Shown piece after piece: positions 2,747 through 36,028 of a stretch of DNA of 64,000 nucleotides. The translations under genes and the position numbers were made by a program. Below the pieces are notes generated by a model. That model saw nothing but the letters and a program-made list of their open reading frames with translations. It was not told where the DNA came from and did no database searches. The number at the start of each line of letters is the position of its first letter. Position 1 is the stretch's first letter. This DNA is from an uncultured bacterium (GTDB lineage: Bacteria > Patescibacteriota > Minisyncoccia > Moranbacterales > GWC2-37-73), in contig CAISKQ010000035.1 of NCBI GenBank assembly GCA_903885965.1, positions 3,926 through 67,925 on the forward strand, given 5' to 3'.

Positions 2747-3244
2747 ATGAATGATGAAATTGTTTTGGAAAAACTTTTGCAAGAATTTTCGGAAAAGTTG
2801 CCGAAGTTTGAGGATGGAAGAATTGACTATTCAACTTCCGACAAAGCACCGGTTTTGAATTGCTTTGTCAAATTTGAAAGTCAGATTTTGATTTTGAAGC
2901 GTAGTGACAAAGTTCGTGCTTATCAGGGACTTTGGAATTCTATTGGTGGCTATTTGGATGAACCTGTTGCGCTTGAGGAAAAAGTGTTGGAAGAACTCAG
3001 GGAAGAACTTGGTATAATGCCCGACTTGATTTTGCAAATAAAAAAGGGAAAGCCTTATGAACTTTTTGATGACGAAATTCAAAAAACGTGGTTTATTTTT
3101 CCAATTTTGGCAGAACTGAAAATGCAGCCAGAAATCAAACTAGACTGGGAGCATACTGAGTTCAAATGGATTAATCTTGGGGATTTGAAAGATTTTGAAA
3201 CTGTGTCAGGATTGGAAAAGATTTTAGAGGCAGTATTAAAATAA
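2747..3244 (+). CDS. NUDIX hydrolase
   Basis: Nudix box 'GGYLDEPVALEEKVLEELREELG' (G-X5-E-X7-REUXEEXGU). Confidence 0.7.
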   Translation: MNDEIVLEKLLQEFSEKLPKFEDGRIDYSTSDKAPVLNCFVKFESQILILKRSDKVRAYQGLWNSIGGYLDEPVALEEKVLEELREELGIMPDLILQIKKGKPYELFDDEIQKTWFIFPILAELKMQPEIKLDWEHTEFKWINLGDLKDFETVSGLEKILEAVLK

Positions 3245-4969: not shown

Positions 4970-5036
4970 TACGAAAATACAAAATAAATACAAAAGTACA
5001 AAAAGTTTCTCATCGCATTTATTTCGTATTTTCGTA
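4970..5036 (+). repeat. Long intercistronic stem-loop between pheS and pheT (22 bp inverted repeat, 2 mismatches, 23 nt loop) built from TACGAA/TTCGTA units
   Basis: 4970-4991 pairs with 5015-5036. Checked base by base. Confidence 0.6.
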
Positions 5037-27716: not shown

Positions 27717-27825
27717 CTACGAATTACGAATTTTTACGAATGTACTAAGATGAAATAAATTATAGATTATTTTTTAACTGAAAACGAATCGAATTCGTAC
27801 ATTCGTACTCATTCGTAATTCGTAG
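27717..27825 (-). repeat. Long intercistronic hairpin filling the whole nifS-nifU gap (29 bp arms, 3 nt internal mismatch, 51 nt loop) built from TACGAA/TTCGTA units
   Basis: 27717-27745 pairs with 27797-27825, checked base by base. The 3' arm ends 6 nt before the nifU start codon. Confidence 0.6.
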
Positions 27826-32936: not shown

Positions 32937-33272
32937 TTATTTTATATATTCATCGGCTTTCGACTTCGTCTGATGAAGCTTGGCCAGCGTATTTTCCATT
33001 TCCTCCTTAATGCTTAGAAACATTTCCAAACCTTGCTGTAACTTTGCAATGTCATTTTTATATTTGGCAATTATTTCTTCATCTTTTTTCTCACTTCCCT
33101 CTTGCAACCTCCTTTCTTTCTCTAAAAGCTCCTCTCCGAGCTTCAAAAAATTTTCAATTTCAGTAATTTCCATTCCAATCTGAATCAAATTAGTTTGCAG
33201 GTGTTCTTCGATTTGTTCAAATGATTTTACTTCACTAGCCATTGCTTCGTCGATCATAGTTTTCTTGTTCAT
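32937..33272 (-). CDS. Hypothetical coiled-coil protein
   Basis: 111 aa, charged heptad-like sequence; no domain recognised. Confidence 0.4.
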   Translation of the reverse strand: MNKKTMIDEAMASEVKSFEQIEEHLQTNLIQIGMEITEIENFLKLGEELLEKERRLQEGSEKKDEEIIAKYKNDIAKLQQGLEMFLSIKEEMENTLAKLHQTKSKADEYIK

Positions 33273-33302
33273 CTAATGATTATTTTTTTAATTCGATAAT
33301 AA

Positions 33303-33344
33303 TGACATTCACTTTGATACTTTCGAGTATCAAAGTGAATGTCA
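33303..33344. promoter_or_regulatory. Perfect 18 bp-arm palindrome TGACATTCACTTTGATAC-tttcga-GTATCAAAGTGAATGTCA, between the second YerC/YecD gene and the downstream gene
   Basis: Checked base by base. A related half-conserved copy lies at 33943-33982, upstream of the same regulator gene. Confidence 0.55.
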
Positions 33345-33356
33345 CATTCTTCTTGC

Positions 33357-33887
33357 TTAATGAATAAGTTTTTTGAGTTTGTGATATAGCTCAGTTTTTT
33401 CCTTAGACTTTTCAAGCTCAGCTATGACATTTTTGATTTTTTCTTTTTGCCTGCGACTTGAATTAGCAACAATATTTTCAAGCAAAAGTTCTGGCCAATA
33501 ATAAGCCGGGAATCTTTTTTTGATTGACCCCCAATTCTCACCAATACCGACTTGCTGTTTGTCATTATTTTGATTAATTTTTTTCTTAGTGCGGGCAATA
33601 GCCTTCTGATAGCCCTCACCTGAAATCTTTAGCCACTCTTGCACGCGAGCAATGGTTGAGGAGCTAACAAGCAATTGCTCCTCAATTTCGCCATAGGTAC
33701 TGCCGCCGATCAAATACTCCGCAATCTTTAGTCTTTTGGCGATCATTTCTGATTCTTGATATGAAAGCAAATCTCGCAGGAGCTCCGCAGCCTCGTTAGG
33801 ATCTTTGATTTCAGAAATTGCTAAGCAAAGTTGGTATAAAATTTTATCAATTTCCTTTTTTGAAAGTTTTGAATTGAATTTAGCCAT
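33357..33887 (-). CDS. YerC/YecD family TrpR-like DNA-binding protein (second paralog)
   Basis: TrpR-like helix-turn-helix 'STYGEIEEQLLVSSSTIARVQEWL'; 176 aa with a longer C-terminal tail. Confidence 0.6.
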   Translation of the reverse strand: MAKFNSKLSKKEIDKILYQLCLAISEIKDPNEAAELLRDLLSYQESEMIAKRLKIAEYLIGGSTYGEIEEQLLVSSSTIARVQEWLKISGEGYQKAIARTKKKINQNNDKQQVGIGENWGSIKKRFPAYYWPELLLENIVANSSRRQKEKIKNVIAELEKSKEKTELYHKLKKLIH

Positions 33888-33942
33888 TATCTTTTTATTT
33901 AAAATTTTATTTCCTCAATTTTATCTCTGATTTATTTTTTTA

Positions 33943-33982
33943 GCAAACGCTTTGATACTTTCGAGTATCGAAGTAAGTGTCA
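33943..33982. promoter_or_regulatory. Second, partly degenerate copy of the GATAC-TTTCGA-GTATC palindromic site, about 60 nt upstream of the YerC/YecD paralog start
   Basis: Core CTTTGATAC-TTTCGA-GTATCGAAG with a conserved right flank AGTaAGTGTCA. Confidence 0.45.
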
Positions 33983-34021: not shown

Positions 34022-34450
34022 TCATTTGGTTGAGGCTGCACATTTGCTCTCCGTCCTTCCTTGCCCAATAGCCTGCGCTGCACTATTAAAGCATACCACA
34101 TTCTCAGGCTTGATGCGTTTGGCATAGGAACAAGTCGGCAGATAAAATTTATTAGAGTTCTTGCTGCCCACAAATGCACAATTGGCTGTTTTGGTTTGAT
34201 CGGCAGAACCTTGGGTACTGGCCTTTTGAACTAGTGCTGCGGCTTCAGAATTGGGCTTGTTTTGATTTTCTTGGCCGTTTGGCACATCAGTAGGTTTTTC
34301 AACAATAAGTGGCTTTTGCTGCCATTTTTGACCTTGAAGAACTCCAAATTCAAAGGAAACGGCTGAAATAAGGCAAAAAGCGACAACCAGCACGATTTTT
34401 TGCTCATTTTTGAGGAAAAAATCCTTAATTTTAAGAAATATTTGAGACAT
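34022..34450 (-). CDS. Membrane-anchored hypothetical protein with a C-terminal Cys-containing (metal-binding-like) motif
   Basis: N-terminal TM 'IVLVVAFCLISAV'. C-terminal 'CAFVGSKNSNKFYLPTCSYAKRIKPENVVCF..AAQAIGQG' resembles small C-terminal Cys modules common in CPR proteins. Confidence 0.4.
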   Translation of the reverse strand: MSQIFLKIKDFFLKNEQKIVLVVAFCLISAVSFEFGVLQGQKWQQKPLIVEKPTDVPNGQENQNKPNSEAAALVQKASTQGSADQTKTANCAFVGSKNSNKFYLPTCSYAKRIKPENVVCFNSAAQAIGQGRTESKCAASTK

Positions 34451-34502: not shown

Positions 34503-34537
34503 GGAGGTTGAGCCTCCATTGGGGAGGCTCAACCTCC
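34503..34537. repeat. GC-rich perfect 15 bp-arm hairpin GGAGGTTGAGCCTCC-attgg-GGAGGCTCAACCTCC in a divergent promoter region
   Basis: Checked base by base; no flanking T-run on either strand. Confidence 0.5.
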
Positions 34538-34615: not shown

Positions 34616-34643
34616 TTGACATTCCCGCTAATTCTGTTAGAAT
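34616..34643 (+). promoter_or_regulatory. Candidate sigma70-type promoter TTGACA-N16-TAGAAT, about 270 nt upstream of rpmA
   Basis: Hexamers read directly from the sequence. Confidence 0.35.
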
Positions 34644-34915
34644 AAATCCTGTAACACTGAGTGGCCTTTAAATTCAAATTGAGTGTCCGTGCGCGTGACA
34701 CACTTTATTGCCAAATAAAATCAATTATAATTTCAACTGCCACAACGACCCCGTAACCTTTTTCTCATTATATTATATTTATGGATATAATAAAAATGAA
34801 AAAAGTGTTTGCGGAAAGATATATTTAAAATTTAACTACTTTAATAATAATTACGAACTATTTCAATCCCCTACTCGGTTATTGATTATTGGTTATTGAT
34901 TATTGTTTGTTGCTT

Positions 34916-35374
34916 ATGGCACATCGTAAAGCCGGTGGATCTACCTCACTGGGCCGAGATTCAATCTCGAAAAGACTGGGCGTCAAGATCTTTGGAAATC
35001 AAAAAGTAAAAACTGGAAACATTATCATCAGACAACGTGGAACCAAATGGCACTCAGGAGAGAATGTGAAGCGCTGCAATGATGACACTCTAATGTCATT
35101 GGTAGATGGAACTGTAAGGTTTTCATCCAAGAAAGTCAGAAGTTTTACTGGACAATTGGTTCTTCGAAAATATGTTAGCGTTGTAAAATCTGACACTCCA
35201 GTCGTACTTAAACCTAAAAAAGTTGTTCTTAACAGAGTAACCTCTGCTCGTAAACTTCACCCAGGCAACAAACCTGGCAAAAGAAGTGGAGCCAAGAAAG
35301 TTGCTCGCAAGCCAAACATGCGCAAGACTGTCAGAAAGCATTTGGTTGCCCGAGAAGCAAAGAAGAACAAATAA
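34916..35374 (+). CDS. rpmA: 50S ribosomal protein L27 with a roughly 65 aa Lys/Arg-rich C-terminal extension
   Basis: '[27 protein letters not shown]...[11 protein letters not shown]' matches the L27 core. The ORF-track start at 34889 is rejected. No rplU upstream. Confidence 0.85.
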
Positions 35375-35464
35375 TTTTTCTGCGGATATGCACGGATTGA
35401 TGACGGATTTTCACAAATCACGGATCAATACAAAAAAAGAAACCTCTTGAGGTTTCTTTTTTTG

Positions 35465-36028
35465 TTAGCTTATTTTGCTGAGAAGATCTTTCTTTATCAA
35501 TCGTAAATTGTCCAACTTAGTGCTCCAAATATTTTGAGTGCTATTAACAGCATTTTCAATCTCATCAAAACTTCTCCATCTAACTTGCTGAACTTCACCG
35601 TCATTAAAAGATAATTCTTTGGTGTCTCTCATGTATCTCAAATAAAAAACATAGAAATACTCGCGGTTAGTAATTCCATCATGTTTCTTGCTAAAACCGA
35701 GAATTAAATCATCAAACTTGATATCCAGGCCAATTTCCTCTCTAATCTCAATCAGGGTTGTTTCTTTTATGGTGCTTCCACTTTCCACATGTCCTCCAAA
35801 TGAGGAAGACCATTTTCCAGGATTAGCATCTTTTGTCAGCGATCGCTGATGTGTTAGCAATTCTATTTGACCACAATCTTCTCTGAATAAATAGATATGG
35901 ACTGTTTGGTGCCACAGACCTTTGGCATGACAAACACTGCGAAGCTCTTTTTCGCCTGTAAGATTTCCATTTTCATCAATAATGTCAAGATATTCTTCGG
36001 ACATAAAATCATTTGAACATTTAATCAT
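35465..36028 (-). CDS. NUDIX hydrolase (second)
   Basis: Nudix box 'GGHVESGSTIKETTLIEIREEIGL'. Confidence 0.7.
   Translation of the reverse strand: MIKCSNDFMSEEYLDIIDENGNLTGEKELRSVCHAKGLWHQTVHIYLFREDCGQIELLTHQRSLTKDANPGKWSSSFGGHVESGSTIKETTLIEIREEIGLDIKFDDLILGFSKKHDGITNREYFYVFYLRYMRDTKELSFNDGEVQQVRWRSFDEIENAVNSTQNIWSTKLDNLRLIKKDLLSKIS

Follow-up and report, generated by a model that had tools for sequence, protein, structure and literature searches.

The stretch of DNA analyzed here, 64,000 nucleotides (nt) of contig CAISKQ010000035.1 (assembly GCA_903885965.1) from an uncultured member of the Moranbacterales, hereafter called the window, encodes a TrpR-like protein of 176 amino acids (aa) at 33357–33887 on the minus strand, and the gene of this regulator is bracketed by two copies of a long palindrome. 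Judging from the sequences of the sites and of the protein, we consider it probable that these palindromes are the cognate DNA operators of the protein encoded between them. Bracketing by palindromes is a trait of the family of long-form TrpR-like proteins to which the regulator belongs. The sites, their conservation, their tie to the regulator gene and their co-variation with a residue that aligns with a DNA-contacting position of TrpR were all directly observed.

The downstream copy (D site, 33303–33344, without strand; centre between 33323 and 33324) reads TGACATTCACTTTGATACT-TTCG-AGTATCAAAGTGAATGTCA and is a perfect 42-bp palindrome, with 19-nt arms that are 100% complementary around a 4-nt centre. 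An earlier note on this DNA, made from the letters alone, had described the same object as a perfect palindrome with 18-nt arms and a 6-nt centre and had rightly placed it between the regulator gene and the downstream coiled-coil gene: it starts 12 nt past the stop codon of the regulator and ends 30 nt ahead of the ATG of the next gene. Its pentamers are TCACT (33309–33313), ATACT (33317–33321), AGTAT (33326–33330) and AGTGA (33334–33338). The upstream copy (U site, 33941–33982, without strand) has its centre between 33961 and 33962 in the same 42-nt frame. The second copy that the earlier note had drawn at 33943–33982 is thus real, but its start was set 7 nt too early, the conserved part (CTTTGATACTTTCGAGTATCGAAGTAAGTGTCA) being 33950–33982, with 3 mismatches in 33 relative to 33312–33344. 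Measured from 33950, this conserved, gene-proximal edge lies 62 nt from the regulator ATG at 33887, which agrees with the distance of about 60 nt given before. The outer arm nearest the regulator gene (33941–33949) has decayed or diverged, with the pentamers kept, and the direct repeat formed by the two sites extends to 33998, i.e., over 49 nt at 80% identity and with a start-to-start spacing of 638 nt. In the 64 kb of the window (G+C 37.5%), the 24-nt core pattern with up to three mismatches occurs at exactly the U and D places (0.00 expected from 100 shuffles), and the generic frame ACT-N5-ACT-N4-AGT-N5-AGT with at most one mismatch yields U, D and one unrelated match (0.03 expected).

Homologs of about 175 aa were found in 137 cases, all with the same conserved C-terminal extension, and 80 loci (individual loci and contigs are given below by L numbers) were taken from species-representative genomes, nearly all of Patescibacteria and several with two or three paralogs. 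When 250 nt upstream and 150 nt downstream of each gene were compared, most loci had a long near-identical segment common to both flanks, and this segment is the palindrome. The similarity between the upstream and downstream copies exceeded the 95th percentile of a null of mismatched locus pairs in 62 of the 80 loci and the 99th percentile in 48. A common-frame site scorer with its threshold above the 99.9th percentile of background, applied to 82 loci (the 80 plus the two paralogs of the window), found 79 of them to have a site upstream of the gene and 80 to have one downstream. The centre of the upstream site lies at a median of 43 nt before the ATG and that of the downstream site at a median of 20 nt after the stop codon, a position at which its outer edge touches that codon; the distance between the two centres ranges from 542 to 915 nt (median 604). 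The downstream copy is not systematically the better palindrome in these loci, since both sites average 14.4–14.5 of 19 positions paired and neither wins more often. The order ATP-grasp, regulator, glycerate kinase is shared by orthologs at only 35–45% identity (L043, L057, L064, L076, and L079), and their inheritance is therefore vertical. Over the family as a whole the neighboring genes are diverse; read from their sequences by eye, and thus as leads only, they include isoleucyl-tRNA synthetase, enolase, serine hydroxymethyltransferase, glycerate kinase, and glycosyltransferases.

In gene orientation the family consensus of the site reads AAA..ttg.cAAATACT-aCC-ATACT-acat-AGTAT-gGT-AGTATTTg. 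It holds four ATACT-type pentamers with an 8-bp period, two as direct repeats on the left and two mirrored on the right, and is symmetric to ±20. The pentamers, of the form (A/G)(T/C)ACT at −15 to −11 and −7 to −3 and mirrored at +3 to +7 and +11 to +15, have a high information content, that of the intervening triplets and of the outer arms being low, and their sequence has been preserved between loci whose proteins are only 35% identical. Co-variation of the two arms is significant from position 2 to position 20, counted from the centre (z = 5 to 12), with none seen beyond position 21. The functional unit must therefore measure about 40 bp, in line with the perfect 42-bp palindrome of the window and twice as long as the usual dimer operator. 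When the two copies of a locus are compared, the non-palindromic 4-nt centre is also conserved; it reads the same way round in 38 loci and the opposite way in 10, and it differs in another 14, and the element is therefore directional.

The regulator itself matches Pfam PF01371 (Trp_repressor) over residues 17–100 with 58.2 bits (cut-off 27, E = 8.9e-16). It scores 42.0 bits against NCBIfam TIGR02531 (YerC/YecD), just under the cut-off of 42.2, and its close homologs carry the name YerC/YecD in the source databases; against the TrpR equivalog TIGR01321 it reaches 25.3 bits at a cut-off of 67.25 and falls outside that family. The closest homologs are encoded in metagenome-assembled genomes of Moranbacteria and Parcubacteria. 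The AlphaFold2 model is all-helical, with a mean predicted local distance difference test score (pLDDT) of 76 and values of 82–87 over residues 11–90, and consists of a TrpR-like helical domain (approximately residues 10–104) with its recognition helix around S75–V82, a low-confidence linker (105–116) and a four-helix C-terminal domain (119–175). In Foldseek searches the N-terminal domain alone matched 3FRW, 3KOR, and 3G1C with target-normalized template modeling (TM) scores of 0.7–0.85, and the regulator matched E. coli TrpR (1TRR and 1TRO) with a probability of 1.0 and a target-normalized TM score of about 0.6. Matches in a PDB profile search were confined to the N-terminal domain. The C-terminal domain is conserved in the family, with the motif KKR(Y/F)PxYYWPE, and has no relative in PDB, by sequence or fold, or in Pfam; it could mediate higher-order assembly (oligomerisation) or ligand binding.

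Whether operator and regulator co-vary had been put forward in the earlier note as a comparative test. This test was run and spoke in favor of co-variation: the variable positions of the site differ between loci and follow residue 76. In the mutual information between alignment columns and half-site positions, residue 76 ranks highest (summed excess 1.99) and the strongest pairs are residue 76 with position 12, 76 with 10, 75 with 8, and 77 with 9; these figures were computed without phylogenetic correction, which lessens their weight as support for an operator. Residue 76 stands at the start of the recognition helix, and a profile alignment to E. coli TrpR places S76, S77, T78, A80, and R81 opposite Ile79, Ala80, Thr81, Thr83, and Arg84, which are DNA-contacting residues of TrpR (PMC9413887). 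Where residue 76 is Q, R, or K, AGTAT/AGT is replaced by ACTAT/ACT, a G-to-C change, in inner and outer pentamers (L033, L038, L048, L052, and L053) or, in L075, in the outer pentamers only. Within one synteny group, in which the regulator gene has the same neighbor on either side, L044 and L045 have Pro76 and G in the pentamers, whereas L048 and L052 have Arg or Gln at this residue and C in the pentamers, the inner pentamers changing from ATACT/AGTAT to ATAGT/ACTAT at both flanking sites; this appears to be a natural specificity swap within orthologs. Since inner and outer pentamers usually switch together, all four would be read by the same kind of helix, i.e., by two dimers per site.

In the mechanism that we propose, each operator would be a 40-bp array of four pentamers that offers room for four helix-turn-helix units and is probably bound by two dimers side by side, in the manner of E. 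coli TrpR on GNACT half-sites. Indirect support for a dimer on a palindromic operator comes from the conservation of the palindromes and from the way in which they co-vary with the recognition helix. At the upstream site, the bound protein would overlap the promoter of its own gene and so cause negative autoregulation. At the downstream site, binding would control or block transcription into the next gene, in the window the coiled-coil gene, and would also close the regulator's own transcription unit. Each paralog would most likely bind its own pair of operators as two dimers and repress its own gene, in most cases together with the one that follows. Binding itself, the sign of the regulation, its stoichiometry and ligand, and the role of the downstream site are the steps that we infer.

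Promoter-like sequences coincide with both sites of the window. Consensus matches were found on the minus strand at 33918–33946 (TTGCTA-17-TAAAAT) and at 33279–33308 (ATGTCA-18-AATAAT). In both, the −35 element is a gene-proximal outer arm, namely the diverged arm of the U site in the former and that of the D site in the latter. In the latter match, 6 nt lie between the −10 hexamer and the ATG at 33272, and the transcript would be leaderless. Such an architecture, with the −35 element in the proximal arm, fits both window sites, but half of the family loci have their ATG too near the site to allow it. Judged by sequence fit, an internal promoter with its −35 element in the distal outer arm and nAGTAT as −10 element would be the only option that suits all loci. 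The idea that the distal outer arm might be the better match to TTGACA was rejected, as both arms read TTGnCA and TTTGnCAAA is itself symmetric.

Several further observations weigh against the operator reading. Neither of the two promoter architectures that fit the consensus is significant on its own (9 promoter-like matches in the region vs. 5.8 ± 2.7 in shuffles), and −10-like hexamers, scanned by position over the whole family, form a weak peak at +38/+39. Up to 8 loci have retained the downstream site although their next gene is convergent, a count in which some calls depend on open reading frames (ORFs) of only ~110 codons, and the regulators of L010, L041, and L077 stand alone on their strand with both sites present; acting as operator of the next gene is therefore not the whole role of the downstream site. 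Relative to a 90%-identical ortholog (L099, site at 1780–1831), the D site differs in its outer arms (GTCAGTTA...TAACTGAC against TGACATTC...GAATGTCA), which are still perfectly complementary. Such fast, compensated change is poorly explained by protein contact and may instead reflect self-correction of long palindromes. Finally, the D site taken as RNA folds with −29.7 kcal/mol (z = −8.9) and is followed by UUAUUAU (UUAUUAUC, 5 U in 8), and a scan tool lists it as terminator-like; this site may have a local side-function as a terminator, which is not a general function of the sites.

Part of these observations is accommodated by the alternative that survives best, namely that the two sites form a self-bracketing cassette in which both serve the regulator's own gene, either through a loop of ~600 bp between the proteins bound at its two ends, which would strengthen autorepression, or as roadblocks that would shield the gene from incoming and outgoing transcription in a compact genome. 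We regard this as possible though on balance unlikely, and it would refine rather than replace the explanation of the palindromes as operators. Next to the convergent and solitary loci mentioned above, it draws on the upstream site being kept in up to 12 loci with a divergent upstream gene, on the tight placement of the sites against the gene ends with the centre-to-centre distances given above, and on L012 and L032, whose downstream sites are perfect palindromes (23-nt and 21-nt arms, respectively) with no co-directional gene after them. The occurrence of the site core in five convergent and no divergent intergenic regions of a related metagenome population (see below) points the same way. 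The reliance of some convergent calls on short ORFs tells against it, as does the next long ORF past the downstream site, which is co-directional in 67 of the 80 loci and has its first start codon at a promoter-compatible distance (median 71 nt from the site centre). The distance between the upstream and downstream sites shows no helical phasing (Rayleigh p ~0.9), though phasing is weak at 600 bp anyway. Furthermore, about five extra site copies occur in 473 kb of related flanks, and the two that were checked (L001 and L009) lie upstream of the start of an adjacent co-directional gene, as expected of ordinary operators. On such an ordinary reading, one operator would stand at the promoter of the regulator and the other at that of the next gene. 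As the bracket is independent of the neighbors, the downstream site must nevertheless have a role tied to the regulator gene itself, most likely either in looping to the upstream site for repression or as a roadblock at the end of the transcription unit.

The earlier note would have given up the operators if the palindromes occurred genome-wide independently of YerC/YecD genes, and this holds in part for a single metagenome population. A scan of metagenome contigs for the window core ACTTTGATACT-N4-AGTATCAAAGT returned 51 stretches, most of them without a YerC-like gene in the stored DNA. Many of these come from one population of ~40% G+C, which carries the core ACTTTGATACT-TTGG-AGTATCAAAGT at no fewer than 19 distinct intergenic places (i.e., at least 19; contigs L081, L083, L098, L100, L101, L108, L122, L131, and others), yet a 114-aa YerC-like gene is bracketed by the same core there too (L083, 4841–5200). 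The TTGG-centred core has the same orientation relative to the left-hand gene in 14 of 14 cases, and the genes beside it include, by eye, several paralogs resembling phosphoenolpyruvate-utilising enzymes, HD-domain proteins, and Sua5/YrdC-like and radical-SAM-like proteins. Rather than independence of such genes, the pattern suggests that the system has a larger regulon in this population or is put to use there for boundary elements. Taken further, palindromes and protein together might be sequence-specific transcription boundary elements, a bound 40-bp site stopping or insulating transcription at gene ends, but we consider this unlikely; equally doubtful is its corollary that each family member would fence its own gene and that some lineages would have recruited the element to many intergenic places, including convergent ends. 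If true, bacteria whose genomes are very small would possess a system of terminators or insulators that depends on a protein.

It is less likely still that the palindromes act as RNA, i.e., as hairpins that terminate or stabilise the transcripts of the upstream gene, with the sequence similarity between copies as a by-product of duplication. The stable fold of the D site, its U-containing tail and its terminator-like appearance would fit this idea, as would the position of sites directly after stop codons. Palindrome mismatches of the G:T type (66 and 76), however, are no commoner than those of the A:C type (63 and 71), without strand bias; there is thus no sign of selection on a sense-strand RNA hairpin, which would favor G:U. 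A structural hairpin also has no need of the pentamer sequence that is kept at 35% protein identity, and the U copy of the window, which lacks one arm and makes a poor hairpin, has kept its pentamers all the same. Upstream sites are present in divergent regions with nothing to terminate, and searches of Rfam with the palindrome gave only sub-threshold miRNA-hairpin models. The family consensus 3′ of the palindrome is A-rich and has no T run, whereas a genuine terminator of the window, at 35430–35465 between the L27 gene and a convergent Nudix-like gene, looks canonical (AAAAAAAGAAACCTC...GAGGTTTCTTTTTTT), with a GC stem of 17-nt perfect arms (ACAAAAAAAGAAACCTC/GAGGTTTCTTTTTTTGT) and a T run, and a near-identical element occurs in L001, L002, L004, and L008. 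The missing wobble bias, the lack of a family-wide T run and the canonical form of the real terminators led us to reject RNA hairpin or terminator as the general role and point to DNA bound by protein.

Repetitive extragenic palindromic (REP) sequences flank the genes of RAYT (Y1/HUH) transposases and occur in many dispersed extragenic copies, and the loci described here resemble them in that the gene has a palindrome of its own type on either side and this type differs between paralogs; the population with its many cores, mostly after gene ends, and the L001 locus, in which an inserted gene came together with one extra copy, might be read in the same way. That the palindromes are maintained or spread by the flanked protein, as in such REP-like mobile elements, is nevertheless the least credible explanation, as the protein is no transposase and has no catalytic domain (it consists of a helix-turn-helix domain and a small helical domain, Trp_repressor being the sole family matched), the copy number is low except in that one population (each type occurs twice in the 64-kb window, and the extra copies in the related flanks are few), the synteny is conserved over deep divergence with vertical inheritance, and no relative was found in 2.9 million viral contigs; given the conserved synteny and the absence of viral relatives, a mobile or phage origin was rejected.

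The operators proposed here have a counterpart at the other, first paralog in the window, the YerC/YecD-family protein of 135 aa at 2267–2674 on the plus strand (53.9 bits vs. a cut-off of 42.2), which is 37% identical to the 176-aa regulator. Its gene is flanked by two palindromic sites without strand, at 2142–2169 (ATACTTCCATATATCCATTTATGGAAGT) and 2692–2719, which are identical over 28 nt and differ in sequence from the 42-bp palindrome. The downstream one starts 18 nt past the stop codon, and 27 nt separate its end from the ATG with which a Nudix-family gene (2747–3244) begins. A two-sided layout with distinct sites for each of the two paralogs, as described in the earlier note, is therefore borne out, and because their sites differ, two separate TrpR-like circuits would be the natural reading. 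The first paralog would share the design of the second with another site sequence, so that no cross-talk would be expected between the two circuits. A third, weak tblastn match at 35234–35407 (E = 0.009), antisense to the L27 gene, was treated as spurious.

Around the 176-aa regulator, the next gene past the D site (32937–33272, minus strand) encodes a predicted coiled-coil protein of 111 aa without a family match. In the orthologous loci L001, L003, and L005 it keeps its place beside the regulator, and it is likely the second target of the D site; a gene of the amino-acid-kinase family comes after it. The upstream neighbor (34022–34450, minus strand; 142 aa, with a weak, sub-threshold match to an Ada Zn-binding domain) is conserved beside the regulator in related loci, and no copy of the site was found upstream of it in the window. 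In L001 (2179–2220 and 2322–2831), an ortholog locus with 89% identity, an extra gene for a 169-aa hydrolase-like protein is inserted between the 142-aa gene and the regulator. The 42-nt palindrome is present there in a third perfect copy, so that the inserted gene, like the regulator, stands between two copies.

Other features of the window were noted in passing. A perfect palindrome with 15-nt arms (34503–34537, GGAGGTTGAGCCTCC-attgg-GGAGGCTCAACCTCC) precedes the start of the 142-aa gene by about 50 nt; its G+C content is high for this genome, and it bears no relation to the YerC sites. The best promoter-like match of the region, TTGACA-16-TAGAAT with an upstream TG (11/12), falls in the stretch 34616–34900 and is followed by ~250 nt without an ORF or Rfam match, which may be an undescribed leader, and then by the L27 gene (34889–35374), the product of which has 161 aa and a long basic C-terminal tail. 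Inverted repeats of TACGAA(T) units at 27717–27825 and 4970–5036 (e.g., CTACGAATTACGAATTTTTACGAATG) may be an array of sites for a further regulator. Searches over the whole 64-kb window yielded neither a tRNA gene nor a match to any Rfam family that reaches the gathering score.

The system described here has to be compared with several known ones. HisR (B. subtilis YerC) is a histidine-dependent repressor of the TrpR family of fewer than 100 aa that is usually present in single copy, and it binds a 20-bp palindrome, cacTTTAnnnnnnTAAAgtg, ahead of his and histidine transporter genes; about half of the hisR genes are preceded by their own site, and HisR motifs are lineage-specific (PMC9413887). 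HisR and TrpR are both ligand-dependent repressors that bind palindromes and are often autoregulated (PMC9413887). The window protein shares with HisR the Pfam family and the fold, its best PDB matches being the three structures named above, of which 3G1C is cited as HisR (PMC9413887), as well as, by prediction, a palindromic operator and autoregulation of the kind common for hisR. It differs in its length, 176 aa with an extra conserved C-terminal domain against ~100 aa without one, in the two to three paralogs per genome of the long-form family, and in its 40-bp array of four pentamers on both sides of its own gene against the 20-bp site of HisR. The window sequence CACTTTG...CAAAGTG resembles a HisR/TrpR-like motif, but the resemblance falls in positions that vary in the family and the spacing differs, and the site does not qualify as a HisR operator. 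The neighbors differ as well, being coiled-coil and amino-acid-kinase-family genes in the window and, by eye, housekeeping genes that look unrelated to histidine metabolism in the related loci.

For E. coli TrpR, half-sites of the GNACT type recur every 8 bp and tandem binding of dimers is possible (PMC9413887). The likeness to the sites described here extends from the fold and the aligned recognition helix to half-sites that end in ACT and repeat every 8 bp, and to a larger number of half-sites per operator than one dimer needs. Half-sites of the trp operator, however, interleave as ACTAGT units, whereas here the four pentamers stand apart from one another, with 4 bp between the inner two, and TrpR is not known to have another operator past the stop codon of its gene. 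Auxiliary operators and DNA looping are known from the repressors of lac (O1, O2, and O3), gal (OE and OI), and deo. These systems likewise have a second operator copy some hundreds of bp away and downstream of the promoter, but their auxiliary site lies in or near the regulated operon and not at both ends of the regulator's gene.

In bacteria of the candidate phyla radiation (CPR), a trp-repressor gene was reported to head the TrpRS operon in a study on tRNA identity (PMC5370408). In the literature searched we found no description of the long-form family, of the four-pentamer operator or of the bracketing layout. What appears to be new here is a CPR-wide, long-form protein of the TrpR/HisR kind with a predicted 40-bp operator at both ends of its own gene. 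Members of the CPR are mostly not grown alone and encode few regulators, and to our knowledge almost nothing is known about gene regulation in this group. The operator reading accounts for both palindrome pairs of the window and raises the question of why an operator should stand at both ends of the regulator's own gene. The family provides dozens of predicted protein/operator pairs with a visible specificity position at residue 76, at which, for example, Pro as opposed to Gln or Arg goes with G as opposed to C in every pentamer. It thus makes gene regulation in the CPR directly testable in E. coli or in vitro and represents a natural set of potentially orthogonal repressor/operator pairs.

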